Virus record (IMG/VR): IMGVR_UViG_3300023294_000015
Location: 3,343 to 67,342 of that record
DNA: 64,000 nucleotides
Source: a virus
Reading direction: 5' to 3' (one strand)
Part shown: piece by piece, positions 29,588 to 61,543 of the stretch
Layout of the letters: each line of letters begins with the position of its first letter
How positions within the stretch are numbered: position 1 is the stretch's first letter
The notes under the pieces: generated by a model
Databases searched by the model: none
Seen by the model: only the letters and a program-made list of their open reading frames with translations
Told to the model about the DNA's origin: nothing
Program-made: the position numbers and the translations under genes

Positions 29588-29753
29588 TCAACAGAAGTAA
29601 GATTCGATACTTACATTATAGTGTTATATTCAACTCTCTTCACGGTTGCCGCAGAGATGTGTGGCTCTATACTATATTACCAATTTAACGTCTATTTATC
29701 ATATTTGCTATAGAGCTTAATTCAGCACAAATACGCTTCCGTCACTCTGTTGA
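29588..29753 (-). ncRNA. tRNA-like structured RNA A (166 nt, expanded D-loop and variable region)
   Basis: Terminal stem TCAACAGAG/TTCTGTTGA; T-like arm GTAAG-TATCGAAT-CTTAC; internal helices CGTATTTG/CAAATATG, TATAGT/ACTATA and GCTCTATA/TATAGAGC. It fills the intergenic gap. Confidence 0.6.
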
Positions 29754-29766
29754 AATTAATTAATTA

Positions 29767-32391
29767 TTATCCTCCGCACTTACTACTTCCACAGCTTTTA
29801 CAACTAAGACAACCTTCTTCCATTACTATATTAGAGCTATCACCACAGTTTTCACACTTGGCTTTTTCAATAATACGCTCTGTACGTGCATATTTCTTTA
29901 AAGTACGGCTCAACGCCTTACCAAAAGAAGTTATGTCACCAGAAGTCTTCTCAAGCTGTTCTACAAGGAACGTTACGTCACTTCCATGTCTTAAAGAAGT
30001 GCTGCAAAGTCTCGTTATAATAGCTTCTTCACCTGTCATTTCAGAAGTTATATTTTCAGAATATAATTCTCCATTTGTATAAAGATCATATCTACCTTCT
30101 TTAAGTTTAAGCAATTCACCATTTTTAATATCTGTAAAATGATGTAATGCAAATACTTCATAAGGTTTACCATCATACAATCCTATAATAACATTCCATT
30201 TAGTACCTTTAGATACAGTAGTGTATATTTCAACTTCTAGTGAATCTGGTCTTTTAAGAGCATCTTTATACTCAAATGTATCAGTTTTCTTTTCATTATT
30301 GCTTACTAATACACCTGTACGACTTCCTTCTACATAAACTGTAACACCTTTAAGTTTAAGTTCATATGATTTCATATAGATATTTTGAACCTCTTCTAAT
30401 GTAACTGTTTCAGGTAAATTAAGTGTACTGCTAATTGCATTTGTAGTATATTTTTGGAGTATAGATTGCATTTCTACTCTTTTTACCCAATCAATATCAT
30501 TAGCTGTACTACCATACCAAGGAGATTCTTCAAAGCATTGTTGTAAATCTTCATTTGACATTGTTGGTATATCACCTTCTACAAAATGAGGATGTCCAAT
30601 ATTAATCCAATCTTTAAATTTACTATGTAACACAGGAAATTCTTGCCATGAATCTTTGTTTTGATCGACAAAATCTACTCTTACATCTTTATCAGATGGA
30701 TTAACTTTCTTTCTACGCATATAAAATGGCATAAATAGTGGTTCACAACCTGATGATGTACCTGTAAGAATCGAAACACTTCCTGTAGGAGCAATTGTTG
30801 AAAAGCTGACGTTACGTCTACCATATTTAGCCATACGTACTGATTGTTCATGAAAATCAGCTCTTAAATAAAAATAAAAACTATTAGCTGGTTTGTAAAA
30901 TCCTTCTTCATTTAAAGCAATACCTTCTTTTATTGCATCAAATCCTTCAAATGAACCTCTCAATATAGATAAATCAATTGTACAATCTAATTCTCCACGC
31001 ATTTTAGTAGACATTACTAACTCTACAATTTTTAAAGCTTGATCAGAATCATACTTTAGATTTAATGCGGCTAACATATCAGCTAAAGCAGTAATACCAC
31101 TACCAGTACGTCTACCTGCTTTTGCAGCTTTCAATATATTCTGCCATAAAGTAAGTTCTGTAGCTTTAACTTCTACAGGTTGATTATCAGATTCTATCTT
31201 ACATATAATATCTTCAACATTTTCAATTTCAAGATCTACTAAATCATCCATCAATCGTTGTTGTTCATAAGCAATTTTATACACTAACTCAAAATCAACT
31301 TCTGCTGTATCTGTAAATGGATTCTTAACCATTGAAAACAAATTCATACACATTAGTCGGCAAGAATCGTATGGTTGTAAAAATTGTTCACCACATGGAT
31401 TACTGCTTACAGGTGTAAACTCTGGATACACACTATCAGGTGACATATCAAGAACATTATCCCAAAACATTAAACCTGGCTCTGCATTTTCTTTAGCTTG
31501 AGTTACAATAGTATTCCAAAGTTCTTTAGCTTTGATTTTTTTAAATGATGAACCTACTACAAATCCAGTTTTTAATGTGTTATATTCTGCATCAATTAAA
31601 GCTTCTTTGGATGTATAATCAAAACCAAATAAATCTTCCTCTATAATATCACATGGAAATCTAAGAGTGTAATCAGTATCATTCTTAACAGCTTCCATAA
31701 ACTCATCATTAAGACGAATTGATATATTAGCTCCTGTTACTTTACTTCTATCAGATTTGATTGTAGCAAACTTCTCTACATCTGGATGATTAATATCAAT
31801 AGATAGCATTAAAGCACCTCTTCTGCCGTTTTGAGCTACTTCTCTTGTACCATTAGAAAACCTTTCCATAAATGACACAACGCCAGTAGAAGTTCCCGCA
31901 GAATTAGTTACTGACGTTCCTTCTGGACGTAAATTAGAAATGTCTTGTCCAACACCTCCTCTACGTTTCATCAGTTGCACTTGTTCTTGTTCTGCTTTAA
32001 ATATACCACCATAGCTATCTAAAGCTGATGGTATTACAAAACAATTACTTAAACTAATAAACTTATCTTTTCTACCAAGACCATACATAATAGAACCTTG
32101 CGGTATAATGTATTTAAAATCTTTGAATAATTCATATATAGTTTCTTGCGTTAAAGAACTTCTTTCAATTCCATAATCACTTAAAGAATCTATTAATCTA
32201 TCTGGATTTCTTACTGTTTGTAAAAGAGTATATTCTTTGTCTGAATAACTACTTTCAATTCTAGCAAATTCTTTTGCTAATCTTTTATGCATTTGGTCGT
32301 AATGAACTTCTCCTTCTGCTGCATACTTACCTTGCCAAACCGATATTGCGAGTTCATCCCCCCCAAACATTTCTTTTTTCACCTCTTCCAT
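29767..32391 (-). CDS. nrdJ: Class II (adenosylcobalamin-dependent) ribonucleotide reductase
   Basis: SNCFV, RRGALM, SNPCGEQ, TIAPTGS and KGVTVY motifs; C-terminal CxxC...CxxC zinc ribbon; no NrdB small subunit nearby. Confidence 0.9.
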   Translation of the reverse strand: MEEVKKEMFGGDELAISVWQGKYAAEGEVHYDQMHKRLAKEFARIESSYSDKEYTLLQTVRNPDRLIDSLSDYGIERSSLTQETIYELFKDFKYIIPQGSIMYGLGRKDKFISLSNCFVIPSALDSYGGIFKAEQEQVQLMKRRGGVGQDISNLRPEGTSVTNSAGTSTGVVSFMERFSNGTREVAQNGRRGALMLSIDINHPDVEKFATIKSDRSKVTGANISIRLNDEFMEAVKNDTDYTLRFPCDIIEEDLFGFDYTSKEALIDAEYNTLKTGFVVGSSFKKIKAKELWNTIVTQAKENAEPGLMFWDNVLDMSPDSVYPEFTPVSSNPCGEQFLQPYDSCRLMCMNLFSMVKNPFTDTAEVDFELVYKIAYEQQRLMDDLVDLEIENVEDIICKIESDNQPVEVKATELTLWQNILKAAKAGRRTGSGITALADMLAALNLKYDSDQALKIVELVMSTKMRGELDCTIDLSILRGSFEGFDAIKEGIALNEEGFYKPANSFYFYLRADFHEQSVRMAKYGRRNVSFSTIAPTGSVSILTGTSSGCEPLFMPFYMRRKKVNPSDKDVRVDFVDQNKDSWQEFPVLHSKFKDWINIGHPHFVEGDIPTMSNEDLQQCFEESPWYGSTANDIDWVKRVEMQSILQKYTTNAISSTLNLPETVTLEEVQNIYMKSYELKLKGVTVYVEGSRTGVLVSNNEKKTDTFEYKDALKRPDSLEVEIYTTVSKGTKWNVIIGLYDGKPYEVFALHHFTDIKNGELLKLKEGRYDLYTNGELYSENITSEMTGEEAIITRLCSTSLRHGSDVTFLVEQLEKTSGDITSFGKALSRTLKKYARTERIIEKAKCENCGDSSNIVMEEGCLSCKSCGSSKCGG

Positions 32392-32906
32392 TGTTCTCCT
32401 CTTATTATCTTATTTATTTGTGATTTACCCACATTAAAATGATTAGAAAGTTTTTCAGTAGATATTCCCTCCTTGTTAAATTTCCTAATGTTATCTACTT
32501 TATCCCAAGTTAATTTAGCACTTCCGCTTAGTTCTCCTACAGCGCCTTTGTTTAAATTAGTATCATATGCATGTTTTACATTTTGAGAACGTGTACACCA
32601 TTCTAAATTGGAGTAATGATTATTTGCTTTATTTCCATCTTTATGATTTACTTCTGTGTAATTAAATGGATTATCTACAAATTCACTAGCTACAAGTCTA
32701 TGAATTAAATGATTATTAAAAGTTATATAGTATGTATTAGCACTCAATCTTGCTTTTAATAAAAATGGTTCAACCGTACCTTTTCTATTTCTATAGCCAA
32801 CCTTGTGTAAAGTCCCTATATTAGCTATGTCCCCAAAATTAGATACTGCATGTTTTCCATTTTCTAATAATTTCCAATCTTTACCAACTTCACTTATTTT
32901 ATCCAT
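32379..32906 (-). CDS. HNH homing endonuclease (NUMOD4-HNH-HTH)
   Basis: VSNFG, IHRLVA..F, VNHKDGNKANNHYSNLEWCT..N..H motifs and a C-terminal HTH; overlaps the nrdJ start. Confidence 0.9.
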   Translation of the reverse strand: MDKISEVGKDWKLLENGKHAVSNFGDIANIGTLHKVGYRNRKGTVEPFLLKARLSANTYYITFNNHLIHRLVASEFVDNPFNYTEVNHKDGNKANNHYSNLEWCTRSQNVKHAYDTNLNKGAVGELSGSAKLTWDKVDNIRKFNKEGISTEKLSNHFNVGKSQINKIIRGEQWKR

Positions 32907-33072
32907 GTTCCATTTTATATGTTATGTCGAAATTACTCCTAGTTTCTTGAGTAGCACTATACCATCTTTCTCTAAGATACATTAAATCAACTATTTCTGC
33001 TTTCTCAATGTCTTTATAACCATCAGAAAGGCTATCCTTCAATATTTGCTCCTTGTGTTGTTTCTTTGACAT
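32899..33072 (-). CDS. Hypothetical 57-aa protein (not in ORF track)
   Basis: MSKKQHKEQILKDSLSDGYKD...MEHG fills the gap and overlaps both neighbours. Confidence 0.4.
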   Translation of the reverse strand: MSKKQHKEQILKDSLSDGYKDIEKAEIVDLMYLRERWYSATQETRSNFDITYKMEHG

Positions 33073-33571
33073 CTGTTCTTCTATTAATTATAAAACTAAA
33101 ATCTGGTTCTTTAAAGTTAATTGATTTCATAACTTTACCGTCTGACATCCTTTTAACTACATATAATTCACCCACTAATTCAAATGTGGTAGCCATATGT
33201 ACTCCCATTTTATTAGGATGTTTACCTAATTCATAAGCAATAACTGTATCAAGAGCTTCTTGTCTAGTTTTACAAAACTTACTCATATTGCTAATATAAC
33301 CAGCTCTAGTGATATCATTTACATTTAAACCATGCATTAACGCAAGTTGTGTAATTGTATGTAATGAATCATATATACCATCACATATTTCTGTAAGGTC
33401 ATTAGCAGCTATTGCACTATACAACTCATTAGTTTCTTCTTTAGTTATATCAGTATATAACTTTCTAAGACTTATATCCATCAATTGTGGTTGATTTGGT
33501 TTTTCTTGACCGATAGTTTTTAACCACATTGCTACACATGAATGCATAGGTACTATTTTTGTTTCTTTCAT
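33032..33571 (-). CDS. MazG-like/all-alpha NTP pyrophosphohydrolase
   Basis: EETNEL...EICDGIYD acidic motif, SNMSK, DGKVMKS..F..PD. Confidence 0.8.
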   Translation of the reverse strand: MKETKIVPMHSCVAMWLKTIGQEKPNQPQLMDISLRKLYTDITKEETNELYSAIAANDLTEICDGIYDSLHTITQLALMHGLNVNDITRAGYISNMSKFCKTRQEALDTVIAYELGKHPNKMGVHMATTFELVGELYVVKRMSDGKVMKSINFKEPDFSFIINRRTDVKETTQGANIEG

Positions 33572-33574
33572 AAT

Positions 33575-33979
33575 TTAATCTTTAATTAATATCTTATTTT
33601 TTTTACGGTATTCTACTTCTTGTCTGTAGTATTTAAGGTATTTATTATCAGGTCTTAATAGTTTTTCATAACTAATACATTTTTCAACCCAATTATTACT
33701 CATTTCATTAAGAGGTACATACTTCAATTCTTCAGTACCATTTTTACCTCTACCACCTCTATACAGCACTTCTCTAATTTCTTCATAAGAAGCATCTGAG
33801 TATATTGATAAATCTTTTGAAGGATATTCATTATCAATAGAATATCTTTGATATGAGTTACCCCCATCAACCATTGCTTTACCACAAGAACAAGTAACAT
33901 AATCATGTACATGATGAGAAATTATTATTTCATTACAGTTAGTACACTGTCTTTGGTTTATTATTAAATGTTTTTCCAT
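33575..33979 (-). CDS. Conserved phage protein with zinc-ribbon N-terminus
   Basis: CTNC...HDYVTCSCG..MVDGG..Y.R motif followed by an RGKNG domain. Confidence 0.7.
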   Translation of the reverse strand: MEKHLIINQRQCTNCNEIIISHHVHDYVTCSCGKAMVDGGNSYQRYSIDNEYPSKDLSIYSDASYEEIREVLYRGGRGKNGTEELKYVPLNEMSNNWVEKCISYEKLLRPDNKYLKYYRQEVEYRKKNKILIKD

Positions 33980-33984
33980 TTTTA

Positions 33985-34797
33985 TTATTTAAATTTTTCT
34001 TTTTTTCTTGCTAAGAACATTTCACAATCAGAATATATATAATTATAAAACAGTTCTATGTACTTTTTTTTGTAAAATACAATATTAAACAATCCCTTTT
34101 CGTTTTGATAAACTTTCGGGTCAATATTTAATTCTTGTTTCAACAATAGAATTAACCAATTTTTAAATAATAATGAATTAGTAAAAAATAATACTTTTTT
34201 ACCTGAATTGTTTTTACCTATAGACCCATCTCCTTCAAATACTCCTCTAATAAAATGTCTAATAAATTTATTAGGAATTTTAATTTCACCAATTGTATTA
34301 CTCTTATTATTAGTAACTCCTAAATTTAATAAGTCGTAACACATTTTTTTATTATCTATTGAAAATCTATATAATGGTTTACAATAATAATTTGTACCTT
34401 TTTTATATCTTGCTTTTCTATAATTTAAAGGTTTAAACCCGTTAAATATTTTAATATTAAAGTAATCTAAGATGTGTCTATCATTTTCAACTATCGTTAA
34501 AGAAATTGTGTGTTTTCTAGAACCTAAATAAACATTACCATCAGAGGCTATCCAACCTAAAAAATAGGCTTTCCATTCACAGTCTACATTGACAAATAAA
34601 TTACTATCTATTTTATATTTTATAGCAGCTTCTGATGGAGATCTTAACAAGCCTAACTTACTCAAAAACTTTTGAACACTGATAGTTTTTAAATTGTATT
34701 TCTCGGCAATCTTCCTTGATGATATACCATTATTATAATTCTCTATTATTTCTTTTTTAAAATTAGTTGGTATTCTTCTTACATTAAAATTCTCCAT
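33985..34797 (-). CDS. LAGLIDADG homing endonuclease with N-terminal HTH
   Basis: Two motifs, YFLGWIASDG and FIRGVFEGDG; C-terminal L.RK. Confidence 0.9.
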   Translation of the reverse strand: MENFNVRRIPTNFKKEIIENYNNGISSRKIAEKYNLKTISVQKFLSKLGLLRSPSEAAIKYKIDSNLFVNVDCEWKAYFLGWIASDGNVYLGSRKHTISLTIVENDRHILDYFNIKIFNGFKPLNYRKARYKKGTNYYCKPLYRFSIDNKKMCYDLLNLGVTNNKSNTIGEIKIPNKFIRHFIRGVFEGDGSIGKNNSGKKVLFFTNSLLFKNWLILLLKQELNIDPKVYQNEKGLFNIVFYKKKYIELFYNYIYSDCEMFLARKKEKFK

Positions 34798-34798
34798 T

Positions 34799-34927
34799 TC
34801 AAACTTCTTTTATAATAATCATTCTTACAAAAGAAGATACTGATAACCCTAACTGGTCAGCTTTTTTTTTGATTTTTTGTTTTAATTCTGAATTAACTCT
34901 AATTAGAATGTCTTTTTCTTTTATCAT
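34799..34927 (-). CDS. Ribbon-helix-helix (CopG/Arc-like) DNA-binding protein, 42 aa (not in ORF track)
   Basis: MIKEKDILIRVNSELKQKIKKKADQLGLSVSSFVRMIIIKEV; its stop lies 1 nt before the LAGLIDADG start. Confidence 0.7.
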   Translation of the reverse strand: MIKEKDILIRVNSELKQKIKKKADQLGLSVSSFVRMIIIKEV

Positions 34928-34946
34928 ATCTCTATATTTTATACTA

Positions 34947-34978
34947 CAAAGATACTACATTTTTACATCACTTCCTAA
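34947..34978 (-). promoter_or_regulatory. Bacteroidota-type promoter for the RHH-LAGLIDADG cassette
   Basis: Minus strand reads TTAG-N20-TATCTTTG, ending 19 nt before the RHH ATG. Confidence 0.65.
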
Positions 34979-35015
34979 TTTTTAATGTTAAGAAATTGTT
35001 AACATTTTATCTTTT

Positions 35016-35150
35016 TCATGGTAATACACCTCCGTCAACCATATATTCATACCCGTTTTTATCAACATAACTTTTAAAATCATGTCTATCATGAGATGTA
35101 AGTATAGTACCATCTGGCGTTTGTATTCTATTGCATAATATTTCTTTCAT
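35016..35150 (-). pseudogene. Truncated 5' homologue of gene 33575-33979
   Basis: MKEILCNRIQTPDGTILTSHDRHDFKSYVDKNGYEYMVDGGVLP* aligns with NQRQCTNCNEIIISHHVHDY...AMVDGG and stops 3 codons after MVDGG. Confidence 0.7.
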
Positions 35151-35160
35151 AATTTATTGT

Positions 35161-35436
35161 TTAATCTACTTCTATTAATTCACCTTCTTTAAAAGGTACT
35201 TCACAATAATAATGTTCTAATCTGTTTACAAAATGATAATCGTTAATTATTGTACAATCTCCATCACCATCTATAAGTGTCCATATTTTACGGTCTTTAG
35301 TAGCTTGATTAAAATCTTCAATAGTCATATTATCACCTCTAGGGTCTACATCCATTAAACCACCACCATCATATTCTTTTGGTTTATATTTTTCTATCCA
35401 ATCAAAATCATCTATTATTGTATATTCTTTACTCAT
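35161..35436 (-). CDS. Hypothetical protein
   Basis: 91 aa; IWTLIDGD...HFVNRL.YY motif; coupled to the UDG gene. Confidence 0.65.
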   Translation of the reverse strand: MSKEYTIIDDFDWIEKYKPKEYDGGGLMDVDPRGDNMTIEDFNQATKDRKIWTLIDGDGDCTIINDYHFVNRLEHYYCEVPFKEGELIEVD

Positions 35437-36047
35437 TCTTTATTTTTAATATTCCAATTAATTTCTTCTTTTTCAAGCATCCATAAATGTGCGTTAGCAA
35501 ATGTAAATACTCCATTTGGAGGATTACTATCTTTAGACATATCTATATACATATACCCAAATTTCTTTAGTTTACTCAACACAACATCCATAAAAGGTTT
35601 CCACAATTTAACATGTTTATCTACATCTTTACTATCAGCAGTCAATCCTAAGTTTAATAATAAAACTCCTTGTTCTGCTAATCCTTCTAATGTATAATCA
35701 AAGTCTACATTTAATACACCTAAATCAGATTCTATACTTTTATGTATATTTTTAATACTTCTTGTTAATCTATCAGTCACATTCAGATCGACACCGAAAG
35801 CTAAGCCTGTAGCTGAACTTTCTGATTTGTAAGGGTGTAACCCAATCAAAACCACCTTTACTTCATCAAATGGTGTCTTTCTGAACGCTTTGAAGATGTC
35901 TGCTTGCGCTGGACATACTTCTACCTCTTTACGTCTTTGTAATAGCTTTTGACCGATAGTATTAAACTCTTCAGAATGTAGAAAATCTTTTAATTGATTA
36001 TACCAACTTATTCCAAATAGTTCAATAAATCTTTCTTGTTGTGTCAT
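35433..36047 (-). CDS. ung: Uracil-DNA glycosylase family 1-like protein (degenerate active site)
   Basis: IFKAF..TPFDEVKVVLIGLHPY, ATGLAF, L..QGVLLLN..LT and H..LW.PF motifs. GQDPY is replaced by GLHPY and there is no HPSP motif. Confidence 0.75.
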   Translation of the reverse strand: MTQQERFIELFGISWYNQLKDFLHSEEFNTIGQKLLQRRKEVEVCPAQADIFKAFRKTPFDEVKVVLIGLHPYKSESSATGLAFGVDLNVTDRLTRSIKNIHKSIESDLGVLNVDFDYTLEGLAEQGVLLLNLGLTADSKDVDKHVKLWKPFMDVVLSKLKKFGYMYIDMSKDSNPPNGVFTFANAHLWMLEKEEINWNIKNKE

Positions 36048-36406
36048 TATTGTTGTTTATTATACCAGTTAATAAACTCTACAACTGCTAAATAACAATC
36101 TTTTTGATTATTTAATCCATCTGAAACCATTACTATATCGCAATCATCATTAGTAAAATAAAATAAAGATTCTCTATTATCTATATAACTCCATATTTTC
36201 TCAACTACTGGCATTAACCAATCCCAAGATAAATGAAATTGGTAATCATTTTCGTCTGCTGGATAACAATGACATGAATCATTTAACATTGGTATATCAT
36301 TTATATGATAATATTTATCTCCGCTACTGCCCGTTTTATAAAGTATCTCTTTATACTCTATCTGAACATATTCAGCAATAAGCTTATTATTTTCTTCTAT
36401 ATTCAT
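36047..36406 (-). CDS. Hypothetical protein (WDWLMPVVEKI family)
   Basis: ENNKLIA...SWDWLMPVVEKI...VVEFINWYN; paralogue of 38401-38763. Confidence 0.65.
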   Translation of the reverse strand: MNIEENNKLIAEYVQIEYKEILYKTGSSGDKYYHINDIPMLNDSCHCYPADENDYQFHLSWDWLMPVVEKIWSYIDNRESLFYFTNDDCDIVMVSDGLNNQKDCYLAVVEFINWYNKQQ

Positions 36407-39916: not shown

Positions 39917-39918
39917 AA

Positions 39919-41067: not shown

Positions 41068-41074
41068 AATTTGT

Positions 41075-49163: not shown

Positions 49164-49166
49164 ACT

Positions 49167-49355: not shown

Positions 49356-49372
49356 ATTTGTTTATTTTATTA

Positions 49373-49543: not shown

Positions 49544-49546
49544 TAT

Positions 49547-49798: not shown

Positions 49799-50997
49799 TA
49801 TTCAAATTTTATTTCATTAATATTATTATAATACATTACATTAAACTCTTCCATAGGTATTTGTGAACTAAATGATTCATACCATGATTCTTCTTGAGTA
49901 TCATTAGTTACAATTATATACACATTACCTATTTTATTATCGTTCTTACGTAATCTACCTGCTTGTTGAATAAATCTACCATGCTCTGAGTAATAACTCA
50001 TAAGTATTACATTATCAACTTTATTTAAATTAGCTCCTTGAACTAACATATTAAAGGATGCTATTACATCTATCTTGTCATTATCAAAATCTTCACGTAT
50101 TTGATTATTTAAAGCATCTCTAAGCTTCTTACTTTCTTTAGCTCTATTAGACCTTACAACATTAGGAGTAATTAGCTCTAAGCTATCTATATGATTACCA
50201 AAGAGAATTGATTTACCTTTTACTTTTGTAAGTAAATCTTTAGTAAGTTTTATTTTAGAAGGTAAGCTATAAAGCATATTAGCTCTTTTAGCTATAAACA
50301 TACGTCCTAACTTAAACTTACCACCTAATTGACATTCAGTACATTTATCATTGATATATCTATACTGTAATGCTTCTGTAGTGTAGAAAGGTTTCTTTTT
50401 AGTACCTGATAATATACTTCTAGTAACCTTATCAAGATTATGATATATTATATGTATGTTTAATTCTCTACTAGCTTTATCTTGCTGTGCATCACCTATA
50501 TCATACACATAGCATACAGGAGCAATTTGATTTAACAAACTCATCTTAGTATATTCTTCTGTACCAATAAGGTATTTCTTTTTAGAACGCAATGTAGCAC
50601 TTAAACCTAGTAATTTATCATAAGTATTGTTGTAAAAAAATATACCATATGTTAAAGTACATGCTGAATGTATTTCATCTGCAATTACTAAATTAAAATG
50701 TCTATTAGACCATCTAAACGCAGATTGATAACATGCAAACTCAAGTTCTACATGATTTAATATATCAGTACCAAATATTTCATCATACTTAGCTATATCA
50801 TCATATAAATCTTTCTCACGTTGAGTTGTCTCAGCAAGAAAAAGAACTTTACATCCTTTTTCTTGCTTTAACATTGCATCTAATGAAATCCATGTTTTAC
50901 CGATGCTAGTCGCAATTTCGACAGTTGATAAACAACCACTATCTTCCCAATGTTGACCAGCTATTAGTTGGACTTCTCTTCTGCGATTATCAAACAT
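49798..50997 (-). CDS. Superfamily 2 helicase (DExH)
   Basis: ATSIGKT, IADEIH, GLSAT, L.QGAN and QQAGR motifs. Confidence 0.88.
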   Translation of the reverse strand: MFDNRRREVQLIAGQHWEDSGCLSTVEIATSIGKTWISLDAMLKQEKGCKVLFLAETTQREKDLYDDIAKYDEIFGTDILNHVELEFACYQSAFRWSNRHFNLVIADEIHSACTLTYGIFFYNNTYDKLLGLSATLRSKKKYLIGTEEYTKMSLLNQIAPVCYVYDIGDAQQDKASRELNIHIIYHNLDKVTRSILSGTKKKPFYTTEALQYRYINDKCTECQLGGKFKLGRMFIAKRANMLYSLPSKIKLTKDLLTKVKGKSILFGNHIDSLELITPNVVRSNRAKESKKLRDALNNQIREDFDNDKIDVIASFNMLVQGANLNKVDNVILMSYYSEHGRFIQQAGRLRKNDNKIGNVYIIVTNDTQEESWYESFSSQIPMEEFNVMYYNNINEIKFE

Positions 50998-51694
50998 GAT
51001 GATCTACTTCTAATTCAACATTACGAGTTTGCATCAAATCTTTTATTTCATCATACGAGTAAGGTCTAAACTCTTTATGAGTATCAAAACCTACATCCAT
51101 AGTTCTAAAGTTCTTAACATAATACTGATCTCCAATCCATTGAGGATTAGATATTTCTGGTGTCATAGCATCTAAAGTACCATGTGAATGCCCATAAAGC
51201 ATCCAAGCACCTTTATGGCTGTTGTGCCACACCCGCATTGCGTAATGAGACATTACTACCAATTGCTTAATAGGTTTAATACCACGTTCTTTAGGAGATT
51301 CTTCAGTTATATATATTTCAAGATATTCTTGTACTGAACTAAATATATCTCTTACATTACTAGCGTTCTTACGAATTTCTTGGTCATGATTACCTAGAAT
51401 CAAGTGAACATTTTTACATTTGATATTATCTCTAAACTCAAAAATCTTACTAACATGCTCACCTGTTTTATAGTTTCCAAATGACCAATCACCAAGGCAG
51501 AATAAAACATCGTCTTTAGCAACAGACTTATTAATGTTGTCTATTAATACTTTGTTGTGTTCTTCGACAGTATCAAAAGGTCTGCATTTAGAAGTGTTTT
51601 CCCAACCAGAAGTTCCTCTAACTAATCCTGCGTGATGATAATGAGGATCACTACAGAAGAATATGTTTTTATTTTTATTTATCTGTATTTTCAT
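50990..51694 (-). CDS. Calcineurin-like metallophosphoesterase
   Basis: SDPH, LGD, GNHD, SHY, GHSH and DVG motifs. Confidence 0.9.
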   Translation of the reverse strand: MKIQINKNKNIFFCSDPHYHHAGLVRGTSGWENTSKCRPFDTVEEHNKVLIDNINKSVAKDDVLFCLGDWSFGNYKTGEHVSKIFEFRDNIKCKNVHLILGNHDQEIRKNASNVRDIFSSVQEYLEIYITEESPKERGIKPIKQLVVMSHYAMRVWHNSHKGAWMLYGHSHGTLDAMTPEISNPQWIGDQYYVKNFRTMDVGFDTHKEFRPYSYDEIKDLMQTRNVELEVDHHV

Positions 51695-51711
51695 CAGTTA
51701 TTCTATATTTT

Positions 51712-54067: not shown

Positions 54068-54462
54068 TATTTTATTAATTTAAGTGCTTCTTGTAATGCT
54101 AATTCTAAACATTCCTCGTAAGTACCGAATGTTTCATTTAGTTCAAAATAATTACTTTGTGTGTGACGATATTCATAACTTGTTATGATATATCCCCATT
54201 CATTAATACTGCCTTTTTTAATATTAGGTAATAAAACTATAATTATATTATGTTCTTCTTTCAGCCAGCGTTGTAGTAAACTTTGCGAATATACTTTAAC
54301 CTTATTTTCTATATCCCATCTTGAAATAATCATTTGAAATTTATTTCTTAGTATGACTCTTCCTGAATTATTAAAATTAGCATAAGCATTATTACTTTTT
54401 AAATTACAACCCTTCTTTTTAGCTAAAATAGCTGTTTCATACGTAATTAATTCTTCAGTCAT
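54067..54462 (-). CDS. Hypothetical protein
   Basis: LITYETA.LAK.KG, QSLLQRWL.E.H and TYEE.LE..LQEAL motifs typical of Bacteroidota phage proteins. Confidence 0.65.
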   Translation of the reverse strand: MTEELITYETAILAKKKGCNLKSNNAYANFNNSGRVILRNKFQMIISRWDIENKVKVYSQSLLQRWLKEEHNIIIVLLPNIKKGSINEWGYIITSYEYRHTQSNYFELNETFGTYEECLELALQEALKLIK

Positions 54463-54953
54463 TTTATTAATTTTTTAGTTTTAGCATTAAATTGTAAACT
54501 ATGTAAAGGACAAGTTATTACTCCATTTACAGGTTTTACTTGTGATAAATCATAACCTCTATGTGGACATTTACCTTTATGAATACATTTATGTTTTAAT
54601 TTACTTTTTTTTATAAAATTAATAGGTGTACTATATTCAAACCTTTCATCAATAACAGGTAATACAAAATATTCAATTTTACCATGTACTTTTTCATTAG
54701 GTCTTCCTATATTTAAAAACCTATATCTAGTACTTCTATCAGCATCTTTAGAAATAACTCCTCCTTGTTTTACAAACCTAGTATCTATATGATAATGATA
54801 TTCTTTTTGTCCATTTTCAAAATCATTATGTTTTAAATATAATACAGGTGTTATATTAGGTATTAAATCTTCATCTATAGTTGTGATGCAAGGTACTAAA
54901 AAATACTCATCAATTTCTATAGGTCTTTTAACATCTTTAATGTTTTGAATCAT
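54459..54953 (-). CDS. Protein with C-terminal Rieske [2Fe-2S] motif
   Basis: CPHRG...ITCPLH.LQF; N-terminal H.D...HYHID.RF. Confidence 0.75.
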   Translation of the reverse strand: MIQNIKDVKRPIEIDEYFLVPCITTIDEDLIPNITPVLYLKHNDFENGQKEYHYHIDTRFVKQGGVISKDADRSTRYRFLNIGRPNEKVHGKIEYFVLPVIDERFEYSTPINFIKKSKLKHKCIHKGKCPHRGYDLSQVKPVNGVITCPLHSLQFNAKTKKLIK

Positions 54954-54976
54954 ATTTTATTAATTTTAATTTGTTG

Positions 54977-55091
54977 TGGGAGCAGTAGGAATCGAACCTA
55001 CATATATCCTTATAATGGTTTTAGCTAACTCTTGTCTACCATGTGATACTACCCCTATGTGGGGCTGTGTATGCCATTCCACCATACTCCC
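54977..55091 (-). ncRNA. tRNA-like RNA B (Leu-type D arm, 5-nt anticodon loop, ~50-nt variable region)
   Basis: Acceptor GGGAGTA/TGCTCCC-A; D arm GTG-GAATGGCATA-CAC; GCCCC-ACATA-GGGGT; T arm GTAGG-TTCGATT-CCTAC. Confidence 0.7.
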
Positions 55092-55219
55092 GTGTACAGT
55101 CCATTTTTGTTATTCTAATTAAGAGGGCTGTGTCCCTATAACTCAAATCTTCAGGTCGCTATCCTGCTTCTTCTTAAATATCACAGTAGTTTTAAATTAC
55201 CCCTAGACTACCAACTATG

Positions 55220-55666
55220 CTAATAATTTATATATGCTAATTCTGCGTCTTTAATTGTATCAAATGTACCAATGTATTTAGTTTTTCCATTAATAAATTT
55301 TGAAGCAATATATTTATTTAATTTTCTATGTTTATGTACTCCTTTTACTAAAATTTTACCAGAAGCTCTTTTGTTTAATTGATTCGCACTTCTAGTTACA
55401 AATTTACAATTTTCAGGATAATAACCTAACTCATTATTTTGTCTATCTATTTGTAAACCTTCTTTATAATTAGAATTAATAATCCAACTATAAAAATTAT
55501 CATAATTCAACCATTCTTGACAAATAGTAATGCCTCTACCCCCATAATTCTTATAATCTAAATTTTTAAGGTTTAAACATCTATTTTTAATAGATTTCCA
55601 TACTAAATATAATTTAGTATTTTTACCATGTCCATTAGTAGTAGGACTTTTCCATTTTCTATTCAT
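55220..55666 (-). CDS. HNH-type endonuclease with AP2 DNA-binding domain
   Basis: LY.VW..I..RC, YGGRGI.IC.EW, IDR.NN..GY.PENC, then GV....Y.A...NGK.KYIGTF.T...A..AY. Confidence 0.85.
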   Translation of the reverse strand: MNRKWKSPTTNGHGKNTKLYLVWKSIKNRCLNLKNLDYKNYGGRGITICQEWLNYDNFYSWIINSNYKEGLQIDRQNNELGYYPENCKFVTRSANQLNKRASGKILVKGVHKHRKLNKYIASKFINGKTKYIGTFDTIKDAELAYINY

Positions 55667-55730
55667 ATCTTTAAAAAACTAGTTTCTATTTAAGATTACC
55701 CCATTTGGAAACTAGCAAAGCAAATTGCTA

Positions 55731-55880
55731 ACATACGATTTAGAGGTTTAGTGGTTGATAGTTATTACTCATAACCTTAATCAAACTTACCTGTCTTCGA
55801 TCCTTTACGCTTCAGGCTATTATCATTATATTCAACTTACTACATTTTAATCTCTCCTTACGGCATGAGCTACGTATGTC
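55731..55880 (-). ncRNA. Putative structured RNA
   Basis: Closed by GACATACG/CGTATGTT; contains CC-GTAA-GG and TTGAT..GTTAT-GAGTA-ATAAC.ATCAA hairpins; no ORF. Confidence 0.4.
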
Positions 55881-55987
55881 CTTCTTCCTTGATACTGATA
55901 AATCAGCAATAAACGGTGTTTCCAGATTATACTTGAGCAAGTTCCTTTATTGTTTACAAAAGGTTTATTAGTTGAATTTATAAATTA

Positions 55988-56332
55988 TTATGCACTCAAA
56001 CTAGCTAGAGTTTCCTCTAGGAAAGTAAGTTTATTGTTATGGTCTTTCAAAGCTTTTTCAGCTAGAAGTACACGATTCTTAGCAGCAACCAATTGTTCTA
56101 CATAATAATCTCTATCAGCAATTTGATTACCACCATTAACTTTAGCTTTATCAAGCACTTCAATTGCGTTTTCTACATCATCTTCTAGTTTAATGACATC
56201 CCCTTTTTGAGAAGCAATTTGTACTTTCAATGCTGAATCAGCACTACGAAATGCTTTTTGAGCTTTTACTCCTGAATCGTCACCTTCTACTAATGCTACG
56301 AATTGTTTTACGAATGAATTTAATTTTGACAT
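55988..56332 (-). CDS. Coiled-coil hypothetical protein
   Basis: 114 aa, Ala/Lys/Glu-rich helical sequence. Confidence 0.7.
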   Translation of the reverse strand: MSKLNSFVKQFVALVEGDDSGVKAQKAFRSADSALKVQIASQKGDVIKLEDDVENAIEVLDKAKVNGGNQIADRDYYVEQLVAAKNRVLLAEKALKDHNNKLTFLEETLASLSA

Positions 56333-56367
56333 TTTGTTTTTTGTTTTTAATTGTTATTATTTATTGT

Positions 56368-58740
56368 TTACTCTTCTAATACTAATAATTGTGTTTTTAT
56401 TGATGTTACTTTCTTAGGTTTATCAATAAAAATTAATTCATCATCAAATGATAATAAATTATTTTCTTTTTCAACCCATGTAGTTTTTGGATTATAAAAA
56501 GGACTACAACCTATTCCGTAATTTATTACTAATGGTTTTTCTTGATTATAACTACCATTTGCAATATCATACCAATAATTATGACCTTTTAAAGAATCTG
56601 TCCAAAAGAAAGCACGATGTAATGCAGAATGTATACCATCAGCTCTTGCATTTAAATTATACTTACCTATAGGATGTTTAAAATGATTTGTAAAAGCTGA
56701 CATACGAATAGGGTCTGGTAACTGTTGTAACCAATAACCTATTGTATTTGTATTAAATGAACGACTATAAGCTTCTTTAGCTAATAAAAGTAAACATGAA
56801 TCTACACCCATTACGTAATCACTTTCTGGAGCACATACAATACCATCTGAAGTTAATTTGTAATCATCTTTAACCTCTGGCATACTAATTATCTCAGCCC
56901 ATTTACCATTACTATATACATTAGATACCCAACCATATTCACCTTTTTTAGATTTAAAAGATAAGTGTTTGGGAAACTCGCTAGGATTTTCTAAATCATG
57001 TGACAATACAGTATGTATATCTTCATTGTTTACATGTGCAGGTCTAAATTCACACCCAACAGGATAACGTCTTTTAGCTTCAGCTAATAACTTTTCTTTA
57101 TTCATTGTTTTAGAAGTATTAGGTGAAAAACCAACAGGCATAAGTTCCCATAATGTACCTATATCAGAATTTCTGTAAACCCAAGCTCCATAAATATCTT
57201 GAATTTTATTATTGTTCTCAGTAATTAATACATATCTCCCTATATCAACCTTTGCACGGTTAGGTTTATTTACAAGTGCTTTTAAATACCTACCAGTTAA
57301 ATCTTCTTCATTTGTTTTAATTTTAATTTGATTAATATTAGTTATACCATTTTTATACGCTTCTATTTCATCTGTTGTAGCTGCTCTCCATTGAGAAGGT
57401 TTACTATAACTAGTGTATCCTTTTTCAGTATATACAAGATTATTGCTGCTAGATTTTAAAAACACTTTATAGATATCACCATTTTTTCTACAATTAATAA
57501 CATCTTCAAGGCTAACCACAATAGTACCTATTTCATATTTACCAAATACTAACATCTTTTCTTCTTTAGGTTTAATTCCTGTAATTGTTTTAGCAAACTC
57601 TTCAGCTTCAACTTTAGTAGCAAACCATTTAAGACTATCTCTATATTGATTACAAGGAATAGTACCACCTTCAAATCTTAATGAACATGAAATAATATCA
57701 GTACCTTTATTTTCAATAGTATCAACAGTTCCTTTAGGATGCCCACCATAATCTTTAAGAAATACTACATAAGTACCAACAGACCATTCTTCAACAACAG
57801 GTGCTGCAATAAAACGTTTTAACTGTTCGTCATATGCGTAATATGCGTCATATGCTGCTTTTGTAGAAATTTTATAATCTGTAGTATTACCGCTAATAGG
57901 GTTTTCAAAATTAATAGATGCAATAATTTTCCCATTTATTACTATACATTGTGTAGCTTTATCATAACTATCTACTTTATACACAGTACCTACAGTATTA
58001 TAAGATTTTCCTCCATTACCTTTAATACACTCAACATACTCAGGAATAACATTAACAGGTTTAGCTTGAGCTTCAAATGCTTCTTGCGTAGATACCTTGT
58101 AATAATTTTTCCAATCGCCATGAGAACAACAATGATTATTTCCACCATGAATATCTTCAAACGTACTCATGATATATTGAACTTTGTAGATAACGCCTAG
58201 TTCACAATTACCTGATGTATAATCAACTATAAACTCAATATAACTACCTTTTTGAGGAATTGTGTCTTCAATTACAGGTTTAACTATCAAATCTACATGC
58301 CCTTCTGGTAAATACTGTTGAATTTCTTCTAAAGATATTTCAGATACTAATTTAACATTATTAAATCCTCCTAAACCTCTATGTACACCAATAGATATAT
58401 ACTCAATATTATCAAAGTTATTACTGTTATATTTTATAATGTAAGGAACTCCTGGGTGATATGCAAATACATTATACCATTTACCATCTACAAAATCATT
58501 ATTTTTAGTAGCTTCTACACTAATACGATTCTTTAACTTATACTCAGCTATTTCAGTTGGCGTTGCAAGTCTGCAATTTTCATGGTGTACACCACAACCA
58601 TCTTTTATTTCAGCTCTTAAATACCTATGACCTACTTCTTTTACTTGAAATATAGGTCTATCTTTAGATTTACGATGGTCATTATATTCTTTAGTATCAC
58701 ACCATACCCACTCATCTACTTTAAATTCATTATCTTTCAT
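56368..58740 (-). CDS. Mosaic multi-module hypothetical protein
   Basis: 790 aa built from about 60-80-aa beta-rich modules ending in RLATPTEI, VSTQEAF, ISTKAAY, FATKVEA and RAATTDEI. Confidence 0.7.
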   Translation of the reverse strand: MKDNEFKVDEWVWCDTKEYNDHRKSKDRPIFQVKEVGHRYLRAEIKDGCGVHHENCRLATPTEIAEYKLKNRISVEATKNNDFVDGKWYNVFAYHPGVPYIIKYNSNNFDNIEYISIGVHRGLGGFNNVKLVSEISLEEIQQYLPEGHVDLIVKPVIEDTIPQKGSYIEFIVDYTSGNCELGVIYKVQYIMSTFEDIHGGNNHCCSHGDWKNYYKVSTQEAFEAQAKPVNVIPEYVECIKGNGGKSYNTVGTVYKVDSYDKATQCIVINGKIIASINFENPISGNTTDYKISTKAAYDAYYAYDEQLKRFIAAPVVEEWSVGTYVVFLKDYGGHPKGTVDTIENKGTDIISCSLRFEGGTIPCNQYRDSLKWFATKVEAEEFAKTITGIKPKEEKMLVFGKYEIGTIVVSLEDVINCRKNGDIYKVFLKSSSNNLVYTEKGYTSYSKPSQWRAATTDEIEAYKNGITNINQIKIKTNEEDLTGRYLKALVNKPNRAKVDIGRYVLITENNNKIQDIYGAWVYRNSDIGTLWELMPVGFSPNTSKTMNKEKLLAEAKRRYPVGCEFRPAHVNNEDIHTVLSHDLENPSEFPKHLSFKSKKGEYGWVSNVYSNGKWAEIISMPEVKDDYKLTSDGIVCAPESDYVMGVDSCLLLLAKEAYSRSFNTNTIGYWLQQLPDPIRMSAFTNHFKHPIGKYNLNARADGIHSALHRAFFWTDSLKGHNYWYDIANGSYNQEKPLVINYGIGCSPFYNPKTTWVEKENNLLSFDDELIFIDKPKKVTSIKTQLLVLEE

Positions 58741-58755
58741 AATTAAATAGTTTAT

Positions 58756-58790
58756 AAAAGAAGAGTAGTATATTTCAACTACCCTTCTTT
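58756..58790 (-). terminator. Intrinsic terminator-like hairpin
   Basis: Minus strand AAAGAAGGGTAGT-TGAAATAT-ACTACTCTTCTTTT. Confidence 0.6.
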
Positions 58791-58803
58791 AATTAATAAC
58801 TTA

Positions 58804-59040
58804 CTAAGATATTTTAACTATATCTCTTTTACCATAATTCTCTCTGGTAATGTAATTAAATACATCACCAATTTTACCATTTAATGTCAACTTACGTAAA
58901 GTAGGTTGGTTAGCAATTCTAGGTTTACCAAGTGGTTGACCTCTATCAATAAACTCTTTACCATGATTAGTAGTTTGTACTATTACTAGTACTGGTTGTC
59001 CATTGTAAGGACTTGTAATCATTCCTATTAATTGACTCAT
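58804..59040 (-). CDS. Hypothetical protein
   Basis: 78-aa ORF with ATGA coupling. Confidence 0.6.
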   Translation of the reverse strand: MSQLIGMITSPYNGQPVLVIVQTTNHGKEFIDRGQPLGKPRIANQPTLRKLTLNGKIGDVFNYITRENYGKRDIVKIS

Positions 59041-59300
59041 ACTGTTATGTCTTTTTTAGATTTAACTTCGTTTGTCTTGTTTTTAATAACTGTTAATAGT
59101 GCATCTTTATAGATACCACCTAAACAACCTTCAGTATACATTTCCTTACAATCATCTAATGATAGTTTAGAATATGTTTCTACTTTTTCATTGTAAGCAG
59201 CTTCTTTGATTTTTACATCACCTCTAGTCAACCTACGTTGTCCTAGATTACTACCCATTGCAACTACTTGTCTGTTTGTTCTCAATTTACTTTTAGGCAT
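59037..59300 (-). CDS. Hypothetical protein
   Basis: 87-aa ORF with A-rich leader. Confidence 0.6.
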   Translation of the reverse strand: MPKSKLRTNRQVVAMGSNLGQRRLTRGDVKIKEAAYNEKVETYSKLSLDDCKEMYTEGCLGGIYKDALLTVIKNKTNEVKSKKDITV

Positions 59301-59339
59301 TTGTTAATTGTTTTTAACGGTTTATATTAATTTTAATTG

Positions 59340-59405
59340 TGCATCTCAGATGGACTCGAACCATCGTTACATATCCCTATGTCTGTTCCTATTAATTATG
59401 AGTGC
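59340..59405 (-). ncRNA. Minimal tRNA-like RNA C
   Basis: GCACTCA/TGAGATGC-A (one bulge); ACATA-GGGA-TATGT; T arm GATGG-TTCGAGT-CCATC; no D stem. Confidence 0.5.
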
Positions 59406-59503
59406 TTATTTTTTTAGTCATTTTAAAAGTTTTTAAAGATTAGAGTATATGACAAGCGGTTATTACTGGATATGTAATAACTTTATTCTAGTGACTCTAA
59501 TCT

Positions 59504-59710
59504 TTAGTTCATTTGTACTAAAGCTAATAATACATCATCATGTTCTTGTACAAACAGTTCAGATTCATTAGTATCATTACAGTTAGCTATTGTTTGTATT
59601 AAGCTGTCTCTACGATTGATTAACATATCTCTATCGTAATTACTTATAAGCTGTATTAAAGCGTTATCCTTGGGAGTCAAGCCGACTTGGTAATTCTTTT
59701 TCGTTATCAT
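59504..59710 (-). CDS. Hypothetical protein
   Basis: 68-aa ORF. Confidence 0.5.
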   Translation of the reverse strand: MITKKNYQVGLTPKDNALIQLISNYDRDMLINRRDSLIQTIANCNDTNESELFVQEHDDVLLALVQMN

Positions 59711-59827
59711 CTATTGGGTCTTTAAGTGAATGTATATCTTTATTGTATTTAACATCGCATTCAACACATTCGTATCTAAAATTCTTTCTGTTGTATTGAA
59801 AATCATGTTGTTTGTTGTTTTTACATT

Positions 59828-60046
59828 TCATATTATTTCGTTTTCATTAATAAATTTATTAAGATAACCTTCTTGAAAATGATAACCAGGTATATGTAAC
59901 ATGTCTTTATCATCTTTTTGAACTTGTTCAATATGCTTTTGTTTAGGTTCTTTTGATAACCTGTAAGTTAATAATTGTGTTTCAGCATCAAATCCTGTAA
60001 TAAATATAGAATTTTCTGCTGAAGTAGGTATCATTTGTATAATCAT
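59828..60046 (-). CDS. Hypothetical protein
   Basis: 72-aa ORF. Confidence 0.5.
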   Translation of the reverse strand: MIIQMIPTSAENSIFITGFDAETQLLTYRLSKEPKQKHIEQVQKDDKDMLHIPGYHFQEGYLNKFINENEII

Positions 60047-60342
60047 GGTAATTTGTTTTTATCAGTAGTAAAATAAAATCCTAATATCCAAAATCTCCAG
60101 AAATATACTTGATTAAATATATCCCAATACTTTTGAACATAAAATATTCTATTAAAGAATATATTGCTTTCATTCATAATAATTTGTTTTAAATAAATAA
60201 AAATATATATGGCTGCTGCATAAGTTGACCATTAAAGATACGATTACAATCTTCACCATATATATACCTACTAACCAATCTTCATTGTTTTACTTCATAA
60301 CAGCTTTTTGCGGCTATTATAAGAGTGTTAGTAGGATTAGTA

Positions 60343-60534
60343 TCATATTATTTCAAATGAATGATAGCCTGTATTACCAGCAATTTGTTGTGCTAATGCA
60401 GCCCAATTACCATCAAATCTTTCTTTATCATTACCTTCCATCTTAGGCTTACATACTTGTGATGATGTTTTTTCAGCATTAAAGTATACAATAATACCTG
60501 AAGCTGATGGTTTACTTTTCTTGTTATTTAACAT
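60343..60534 (-). CDS. Hypothetical protein
   Basis: 63-aa ORF with A-rich leader. Confidence 0.55.
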   Translation of the reverse strand: MLNNKKSKPSASGIIVYFNAEKTSSQVCKPKMEGNDKERFDGNWAALAQQIAGNTGYHSFEII

Positions 60535-60571
60535 AATATTTAATTTAATTGTTTATAATAATTTAAGAATT

Positions 60572-60930
60572 TTAATCTAAATAGTTAATTTCAATACTCT
60601 TTCTACCAGCAGCTTTTAATTTAATTTCTGAAAGATACTGATTGTTTTGCATTGTTGTAATGTAAAGCTTGTACAATTTAGTGTTTAATATCCTGTCTAG
60701 TTTATTTACTTTAGGTATGACTTCGTAATCATCGAATGGTGTATAATCTCCACCAGAAGACATAGAGTTAGGGATTATCATCATTTTATCCTCCTTAACC
60801 ATTATACGTACATTAGGAACGTAGTAAATACCATCTTTAGTGTTAGAAATTTCAAGTAAATTTAATACTTCTTTAATTGTATGTTCTCCAATATTTAATT
60901 TAGAATCACCTCTTACTGTATATTTTTTCA
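60572..60930 (-). CDS. Hypothetical protein
   Basis: ORF 60572-60994 in the track; the probable start is the MKKY ATG near 60930. Confidence 0.5.
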
Positions 60931-61257
60931 TTTTATAATAGTTTAATATGTTTACGTAATTTAGTACCATACCATAGGTGTATATTCTTACCAAAGTATA
61001 ACCTTGGTGAATAAAAGTATTCTACAATACTTACTGCGATTGAAATAAATAATAATATTTTCATTGTTTAATTGTTAATTTTTAAAAGAACTCCTGTAAG
61101 CCTATAATACTTATTAATACCGCCATATAACCTACTCTAATTTGGTTGAGCTAGTACCACCTATAATTGGACAGGAGTTAATACTATACACATTATCCTT
61201 GGTAACAAATGTCAAATACTTCTTTTACCTTTCAAATGATTAATAGTATGTAATGTA

Positions 61258-61449
61258 TGAGAGAGTCAAACTGAATACCCGCTACTCTCGCTTTGGGTTC
61301 TGTACTTCACTCTTTCTAACTACTCTTTTAAAGTATGTTAGTTATAGCTTTTCCTCCCAGTATACCGTCAACTTGCTAGCTGTCTTGGTATTCTAAGGGA
61401 CTCAGTATTTATGGCTAATTACTCCATGTTTTTTTAATGACTTCTCTCA
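61258..61449 (-). ncRNA. Putative structured RNA
   Basis: Closed by TGAGAGAAGTCA/TGACTCTCTCA; internal CTAAC/GTTAG helix and GC-GAGA-GT tetraloop; GC higher than the flanks. Confidence 0.45.
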
Positions 61450-61456
61450 ATGATTA

Positions 61457-61543
61457 TGAACGGGTGTGAGGACTCGAACCTCACTCATTATAAAGATTGA
61501 ACTTTATAATTTCTCATTTTCACGACTAGTATATGAACCCGCT
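61457..61543 (-). ncRNA. tRNA-like RNA D (9-bp anticodon-like stem, 6-nt TTCAAT loop)
   Basis: AGCGGGT/ACCCGTT; TCAT/ATGA D-like stem; ATTATAAAG-TTCAAT-CTTTATAAT; GTGAGG-TTCGAGT-CCTCAC. Confidence 0.6.

Follow-up and report, generated by a model that had tools for sequence, protein, structure and literature searches.

The window analysed here, a stretch of 64,000 nucleotides (64 kb) of the linear 67.3-kb virus record IMGVR_UViG_3300023294_000015 (CheckV completeness of approximately 63%), has a GC content of approximately 30% and is part of the genome of an uncultured marine crAss-like phage. Large virion genes occupy the plus strand up to about 28 kb, including an open reading frame (ORF) of 3919 amino acids and a protein of 1396 amino acids that matches the crassvirus muzzle family PF25731 (E 1.7e-140) and shares 26-28% identity with its counterparts in crAss-like phages. 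The minus strand carries replication and early genes, which encode a DNA polymerase, a primase, helicases, a ribonucleotide reductase, an RNA ligase, a metallophosphoesterase and two HNH and one LAGLIDADG endonucleases. Four intergenic stretches, all located on this gene (minus) strand, had been described in an initial annotation as transfer RNA (tRNA)-shaped RNAs: element 1 (29588-29753), element 2 (54977-55091), element 3 (59340-59405) and element 4 (61457-61543). Our analyses revealed that elements 2 to 4 are three real tRNA-derived, non-decoding elements and that element 1 is a false member of the group; the description as tRNA mimics unable to decode therefore fits elements 2 to 4, while element 1 has to be dropped from it.

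The exact T-arm box GGTTCGANTCC was found three times in the window (54988, 59352 and 61470), always on the minus strand, and these three sites correspond to elements 2, 3 and 4. The number expected from 1000 dinucleotide-preserving shuffles was 0.006, with six shuffles containing one match and none containing three. Folding of elements 2, 3 and 4 showed, in each case, an acceptor helix stacked on a T arm together with an internal hairpin having a loop of 5, 4 and 6 nucleotides (nt), respectively, with z-scores of -2.07, -1.67 and -3.98, and thus reproduced the loop sizes reported earlier for the "anticodon" region. The T stems and the replacement hairpins of the three elements are free of mismatches, and so is each acceptor stem in elements 2 and 4. 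The T box stands on a full acceptor stem of 7 base pairs (bp) in elements 2 and 4 and on a bulged acceptor in element 3, and it is missing from element 1. None of elements 2 to 4 has a tRNA anticodon arm, that is, a 5-bp stem and a 7-nt loop with U33 and an anticodon, and none of the four stretches, as read from the sequence, encodes CCA, in agreement with the initial annotation. The T box and the fold thus support three of the four tRNA-shaped RNAs proposed, but not element 1, which has neither a T box nor a model match. The argument that the sequences differ while the stems stay paired sets paralogues, or tRNAs of different types, from a single genome side by side, and this is not covariation across orthologues.

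ARAGORN predicted no tRNA and no transfer-messenger RNA (tmRNA) in the window, in accordance with the earlier statement that it holds no canonical tRNA. The comparison with Rfam, which had been suggested as a check, gave a divided outcome: the whole window showed no match at gathering thresholds (29 bits for tRNA, RF00005; 47 bits for tmRNA_permuted, RF04321), but element 2, when scored alone, passed the tRNA cut-off with 37.3 bits. When introns were allowed, ARAGORN proposed two intron-containing tRNAs. One, tRNA-Val(cac), was placed at element 2 with an intron of 23 nt; the other, tRNA-Ser(act), has an intron of 671 nt and runs across ORFs to end in element 3. Both were rejected because of their poor stems; no group I intron match in the Rfam scans supports these calls, and we know of no bacterial mechanism for such intron-containing tRNAs. 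At a lowered threshold, ARAGORN returned 202 "genes", which were regarded as noise. Derivation of the elements from a phage attachment site (attP) or from host tRNA 3' fragments was also rejected, since the matching 5' strands are present, together with the D arm in element 2; no integrase was found among the window ORFs scanned.

The intergenic stretch of element 1 is structured: a stem of 9 bp closes it, and it includes a hairpin whose 8-nt loop, TATCGAAT, contains no canonical T box. It gave no tRNA model match at E <= 10, and its fold is of modest stability (z of -1.8, with 6 of 200 shuffles as good). In a relative whose ribonucleotide reductase is 61% identical, this site is occupied by no more than a terminator-like hairpin, and the ORF downstream of element 1 had no homologue in 5 related records. 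A tRNA shape, or membership in the tRNA-like family, was consequently not confirmed for element 1. With the missing T box, the 8-nt loop, the lack of a model match and the modest z-score, and with no counterpart in the 61% relative, this stretch is probably either a chance look-alike or an unrelated structured 3' untranslated region or terminator of the ribonucleotide reductase gene. On the other hand, it begins with a stem followed by UG, as a tRNA does, and its hairpin can be read as a canonical T arm plus one inserted A, so that it may be an old, decayed tRNA relic.

Element 2, of 115 nt, has a tyrosine-type tRNA body, in which the acceptor stem comprises 7 bp, the D arm contains GG, and both a T arm and a discriminator A are present. 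In the alignment to the Rfam tRNA model, the acceptor, the D arm and the T arm fit, and an insert of 58 nt replaces 15 anticodon-arm positions. A stretch of 21 nt from its 3' half was found exactly in three viral contigs, lying within ARAGORN-called tRNA-Tyr(GTA) genes in two of them (L140 and L141) and within a tRNA-Tyr-like gene in the third (L139). The first 7 and the last 25 bases of element 2 are identical to all three genes at 32 of 32 positions, which assigns its acceptor/T-arm half and its discriminator A, on sequence grounds, to the tyrosine type. The D arm also resembles that of class II tRNAs, with a 3-bp stem and GG in the loop. Compared with a class II tRNA-Tyr(GUA), element 2 therefore shares the acceptor, the discriminator, the T arm and this D arm, but it has neither the GUA anticodon nor the 7-nt loop, carries the 58-nt insert in place of both the anticodon and the variable arms, and is not called by ARAGORN. 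Its bottom half is unlike tRNA-Tyr and consists of the hairpin GCCCC-ACAUA-GGGGU, which is GC-rich within a genome of 30% GC, and approximately 44 further bases. A hidden GUA anticodon was sought on inspection and rejected, the sole U-GUA being located inside the T stem. A union of a tRNA-Tyr top with an unrelated bottom, in a molecule whose hairpins are perfect, points to replacement with retention more than to erosion by point mutation.

The tyrosine-type acceptor, discriminator A and T arm also bear on the idea that element 2, and perhaps element 3, would act outside translation as a decoy or sponge for a host tRNA-targeting nuclease or another tRNA-binding factor. tRNA-Tyr is a known target of defence: the host PtuAB of retron-Eco7 has been described to degrade tRNA-Tyr, and phages to counter it with a tRNA-Tyr of their own (PMC11555353). 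The phage furthermore has RNA ligase and metallophosphoesterase genes, a pairing typical of RNA repair. The published counter-measure, however, is a working tRNA and not a mimic, and we consider such a decoy role to be very unlikely.

Element 3 is a tRNA-like relic of 66 nt. Its T arm is perfect, its hairpin has a loop of 4 nt, a D stem is absent, and its acceptor stem pairs only with a 1-nt bulge. It scored 14.7 bits against the tRNA model (E 0.13; 59345-59402), which is below the 29-bit cut-off. Local alignment of elements 2 and 3 with their flanks gave a score of 36, compared to 19 +/- 3 for shuffles, none of 300 of which reached 36, and the alignment spans the bases ahead of the T arm, the T arm itself and a 3' trailer. 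This trailer, the 13-nt sequence ATTAAAATTAATA, has just two exact copies in the window, one at 54958-54970 (minus strand), 7 nt past element 2 and 4 nt ahead of the next ATG, and the other at 59325-59337 (minus strand), 3 nt past element 3. Element 3 is thus a shortened paralogue of the 3' half of element 2 with its trailer, and its sequence reads like that of element 2 minus the long interior. Directly upstream of element 3, at 59435-59505 (minus strand), lies a long hairpin whose outer stem comprises 10 bp and whose inner stem comprises 8 bp (z of -4.03; 1 of 200 shuffles as stable). In a distant phage (L066, 340-460), an 18-bp closing stem surrounds two T-arm-like hairpins, one of which shares 17 identical nt with the T arm of element 3; ARAGORN called no tRNA there.

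The nearest sequences compared were marine metagenome contigs. A single-protein scan for relatives of the DNA polymerase found no match; relatives were obtained from profile scans, with polymerase identities of at most approximately 61% and of approximately 60% in the closest group. One 99% identical fragment of 2.4 kb was also found, and it stops short of element 2. Closer matches are on record for single proteins: a 790-amino-acid protein of the window is listed for 8 contigs of up to 69 kb, and a polymerase with 89% identity for a contig of 17.9 kb. Eight loci of the closest group contained no tRNA according to ARAGORN, and G001, a relative of 88.9 kb, had nothing above the Rfam tRNA cut-off. 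Among 10 further loci, eight were without tRNA, L107 had one, and L103, with a polymerase approximately 54% identical, had five: Gln, Asn, Arg, one reported by ARAGORN as "tRNA-???", and Leu(UAA). Protein comparisons for synteny, made with 7 loci, revealed that L103 and the window share the order of a small gene (homologue of 58804-59040), a large gene (homologue of 56368-58740) and the polymerase. The tRNA-Leu of L103 is located between this gene pair and the polymerase, which is the slot of element 2, and its "tRNA-???" (1748-1819) is located upstream of the pair, which is the slot of element 3. The latter scored 41.8 bits with Rfam, and its anticodon region is aberrant, with an "anticodon" of 2 bases according to ARAGORN, so that a second phage lineage holds a non-decoding tRNA look-alike at this site.

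These syntenic positions indicate that the sites of elements 2 and 3 are long-standing tRNA slots, and a descent of the window elements from tRNA-type genes in such slots is, at the level of sequence, well supported. Ordinary tRNAs at these sites in close relatives had been named as the finding that would indicate recent pseudogenisation; such a tRNA was found in L103 at the slot of element 2, but the one at the slot of element 3 is itself aberrant in its anticodon. Given that the isotypes differ (Leu versus a Tyr-type top), L103 does not show the recent decay of an orthologue.

Element 4 is a minihelix of 87 nt within a 750-nt ORF-free stretch. Its 7-bp acceptor (AGCGGGU/ACCCGUU) is accompanied by a 6-bp T stem with the loop UUCGAGU and by an AU hairpin of 8-9 bp, and none of 200 shuffles matched its fold. 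No tRNA or tmRNA model matched it (tRNA at E <= 10). The 7-mer AGCGGGU occurs twice on the minus strand (61537-61543 and 61277-61283), approximately 260 nt apart, one copy preceding the T arm and the other following it, so that two mutually exclusive acceptor helices would be available; the second copy is followed by AUUCAGUUUGAC, the two together spanning 61265-61283.

Two RNA modules share the ORF-free stretch with element 4. Module A (61640-61812, minus strand) is a conserved structured non-coding RNA in the 5' part of the stretch, just 5' of the element 4 segment. A gapped pattern derived from it recovered 9 viral stretches, 7 of which were true matches, in 6 distinct contigs, and RNAalifold applied to 7 sequences gave 28 pairs, 7 of them with compensatory changes; no Rfam family matched. 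The module, approximately 170-230 nt long, is closed by the helix UCAUCUG/CAGAUGA and further contains a long-range helix and two hairpins, which have the loops (G/A)CCAA(A) and UGG(C/U)A. In relatives it is located at 2117-2300 of L132, 6325-6545 (minus strand) of L133, 275-475 of L134, 10917-11112 of L136, 9903-10135 of L137 and 2115-2310 of L138/L002. The copy in L136 is flanked by two copies of a promoter-like repeat.

A module B-like domain (61257-61450, minus strand) is closed, according to the predicted fold, by UUGAGAGAAGUCA and UGACUCUCUCAU. The closing strands UUGAGAGA...UCUCUCAU, located in the window at 61438-61450 and 61257-61268, are common to the window and the relatives; across module B, the closing strands are conserved (UUAUUGAGAGA ... 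UCUCUCAUCUUAUUG) and the interior is variable. In L137 and in the window, the interior contains a AAGAGUAG motif like that of the DUF805b RNA. The relative placement of the two modules varies between phages: module B follows module A within about a dozen bases in four of the six relatives (L132, L133, L134 and L137), stands ahead of A in L002 (2008-2117) and is missing from L136, and in the window approximately 187 nt, including element 4, lie between A and B. A tRNA-Leu gene, part of a tRNA array, directly adjoins the A-B pair of L133.

In three contigs of the approximately 60% polymerase group, a permuted two-piece tmRNA is located right after module A or in the same region, with Rfam tmRNA_permuted matches at 2334-2515 of L002 (72.1 bits), 1265-1549 of L081 (56.8 bits) and 123-372 of L092 (62.1 bits). 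All three were missed by ARAGORN, and all three have a G3-U70 pair, a tag frame ending in ...RLAA and, following them, a DUF805b motif (39.7-44.7 bits); the 5' end of these tmRNAs is GGGGGUG-(A/C)CUGGUUUUGAC. No tmRNA was found in L003. Permuted tmRNA genes thus occur in marine crAss-like phages. Two-piece tmRNAs are typical of Alphaproteobacteria, some beta- and gammaproteobacterial lineages and cyanobacteria, and these lineages give a hint at the host range of the phages. Two-piece tmRNAs of marine phages have been documented before (PMC9004378).

Element 4 shares the genomic slot of the tmRNA of the relatives, past module A and ahead of a DUF805b-like motif and the next ORF, although the DUF805b-like match of the window is weak (11.6 bits, E 4.4). 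This raises the alternative that element 4 is what is left of the acceptor piece of a permuted tmRNA, with AGCGGGU at 61277-61283 and AUUCAGUUUGAC as the former 5' end of the coding piece. The order of parts is that of the relatives, in which the T arm and the 3' strand come first and the 5' strand follows, with GAC 12 nt on, and AGCGGGU-AUUCAGUUUGAC presumably resembles a tmRNA 5' end. In the minimum-energy fold, however, the AGCGGGU copy upstream of the T arm is the one that pairs with the 3' strand, which speaks against the downstream copy as the partner. Element 4 is also like the permuted tmRNA (RF04321; Buchholz et al., 2022, PMC9004378) in having a T arm and an acceptor helix while lacking an anticodon arm, but it fails the model. 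Rfam tmRNA_permuted had no match within 61000-61900 at E <= 10, and its sole match genome-wide, of 7.9 bits, fell on the T loop of element 2. On inspection, the acceptor has A1-U72, G2-U71 and C3-G70 and hence no G3-U70, and no tag frame with a hydrophobic or AA end was seen downstream. The similarity of the presumed coding piece to the relatives (18-19) does not differ from that of shuffles (18 +/- 2.5), and that of the acceptor piece is limited to the T loop. A tmRNA origin of element 4 is accordingly unlikely.

The varying tRNA and tmRNA content of these phages (five tRNAs in L103, a tmRNA in L002, L081 and L092, and neither in L003/G001) would also be expected if elements 2 to 4 were plain pseudogenes, functionless leftovers of a shrinking phage tRNA/tmRNA cluster whose tops are intact through recency. 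Homing-endonuclease genes adjoin the elements (HNH gene at 55220-55666), element 3, with its bulged acceptor, resembles element 2 after a deletion, and no homologue of the altered interiors was found elsewhere, all of which is in keeping with decay. Against it, the anticodon arms were not eroded point by point but replaced by perfect hairpins, GC-rich in the case of element 2; there is no stem mismatch in elements 2 or 4; and the top of element 2 is identical to tRNA-Tyr at all 32 positions, while its bottom half has lost all similarity. Although it is the main rival to a functional interpretation, decay of this kind appears rather unlikely.

Among the roles proposed in the initial annotation, that of processing signals for ribonuclease (RNase) P and RNase Z fits the context best, because the elements are located near start codons and element 4 separates modules A and B. 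Elements 1 to 3 end 23-39 nt ahead of the next start codon, the distance being 23 nt for element 2 and 39 nt for element 3. The acceptor/T stack of 12-13 bp, the T loop and the elbow are the features that RNase P and RNase Z, like the CCA-adding enzyme, measure. We tentatively propose, with somewhat less than even confidence, that elements 2 to 4 are tRNA-derived relics kept as RNase P/Z processing marks in the manner of the t-elements of plant mitochondria. In such a mechanism, tRNA-type genes of the early-gene region would have lost the 7-nt anticodon loop needed for decoding and retained the stacked acceptor/T-arm helix and the T loop, together with the D-loop/T-loop elbow in element 2. The 5' end of each element would be generated by host RNase P, and a cut past the discriminator base by RNase Z or an enzyme that trims 3' ends, so that long early transcripts would be divided, the message downstream of elements 2 and 3 would gain a short and defined leader (23-39 nt), and modules A and B would be separated by cutting at element 4, with the release of small tRNA-like RNAs as a side effect. 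A role at RelA or in the A site, which had also been considered, would be unlikely in molecules without an anticodon.

Several observations call for caution or weigh against this proposal of processing marks. A loose scan for a 5-bp stem with a T-like loop, and with 6 or more of the 7 acceptor pairs formed within 200 nt, found 3 matches in the window, compared to a mean of 2.2 in shuffles; the statistical weight is therefore on the exact T box and the covariance-model scores and not on acceptor pairing. Neither the interior pattern of element 2 nor the T-arm and acceptor pattern of element 4 had any match in 2.9 million viral contigs, and a 19-mer of element 4 had one chance match in the genome collection (a Rhodospirillaceae metagenome-assembled genome, with no tRNA there). 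The elements may therefore be recent one-offs. G001, which has no tRNA-like element, indicates that the phage family does not need them, and any selection on these copies would have to be judged with the approximately 60% polymerase group as the nearest comparison available. In addition, a compact genome places any intergenic element near a start codon, which makes the argument from position weak. Elements 2 to 4 are best described as tRNA-derived and non-decoding, with transcript processing as their putative function.

In plant mitochondria, t-elements serve as cleavage sites of RNase P and RNase Z and set the ends of messenger RNAs (mRNAs) (Forner et al., 2007; PMC1920247). They share with the phage elements a non-canonical tRNA-like fold, a T arm of the form GGTTCRANYCC and an acceptor-like stem, and they adjoin mRNA ends at which cleavage by RNase P/Z is presumed, and has partly been shown, to occur (PMC1920247). 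The phage elements differ in that they belong to a bacterial virus and are known as sequences, and in that a complete D arm and an identity set of the tyrosine type are preserved in element 2.

Two further non-decoding RNAs can be compared. Species 1 RNA of phage T4 (rnaC/rnaD) belongs to the small stable non-decoding RNAs of the T4 tRNA cluster, which are matured by tRNA-processing enzymes; compared by description, its likeness to the elements is that of a non-decoding RNA among phage tRNA genes. The bacterial Y RNA-like YrlA has a non-decoding tRNA-like module with T and D arms, in which the RNA ends form a Ro-binding stem and the acceptor-like helix is capped, whereas the phage element ends at the acceptor stem; no TROVE/Rsr gene (the Ro partner) was found among 49 ORFs scanned, and there was no Rfam Y RNA match.

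The roles commonly ascribed to phage tRNA genes are to help with codon usage or to replace tRNAs that host defences have destroyed. tRNA-shaped RNAs that retain the half recognised by enzymes and do not decode would suggest a third use, in the organisation of phage transcripts or in the baiting of host factors. A literature search on crAss-like phages and tRNA-like elements returned no description of such elements among the matches listed, one of which, a Crassvirales paper, mentions low-scoring tRNA pseudogenes in passing. The broader generalisation that Crassvirales maintain anticodon-less tRNA "top halves" as RNA punctuation for host RNase P/Z, with CCA-tailed products and with element 2 possibly as a tyrosylated decoy, is doubtful at present. 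The same region also exposes modules A and B as two unnamed conserved RNAs.

Further observations were made in the early region and its relatives. A scan of 54500-62300 for promoters and terminators revealed no enrichment, and the ORF downstream of element 2 had no homologue among cultured phages. The RNA ligase gene (PF09414; 48555-49163, minus strand) and the gene of the calcineurin-like metallophosphoesterase (50990-51694, minus strand) are located on either side of a helicase gene, a pairing reminiscent of RNA/tRNA repair modules. Upstream of the HNH gene, a stretch of 129 nt (55837-55965, minus strand) is 75% identical to positions 4190-4305 of L019 and ends in CAUGCCGUAAGGAGAGAUUAAAAUGUAGUAA, which can be read as a ribosome-binding-like site, then AUG, then a pair of stop codons; near or inside module B of L132 and L137, the similar motif CAUGCCGU was found. 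In the 88.9-kb relative, a 650-nt ORF-free gap of the same early region contains a Twister-P1 ribozyme-like match (L003, 3823-3882; 56.7 bits against a cut-off of 67.2, E 7e-11), which, if true, would be another RNA-processing element of this region. Finally, the DNA polymerase gene of L019 is interrupted by a group I intron (7568-7841; 90.5 bits with Rfam), and that of L103 is likewise split into two ORFs approximately 1.1 kb apart.

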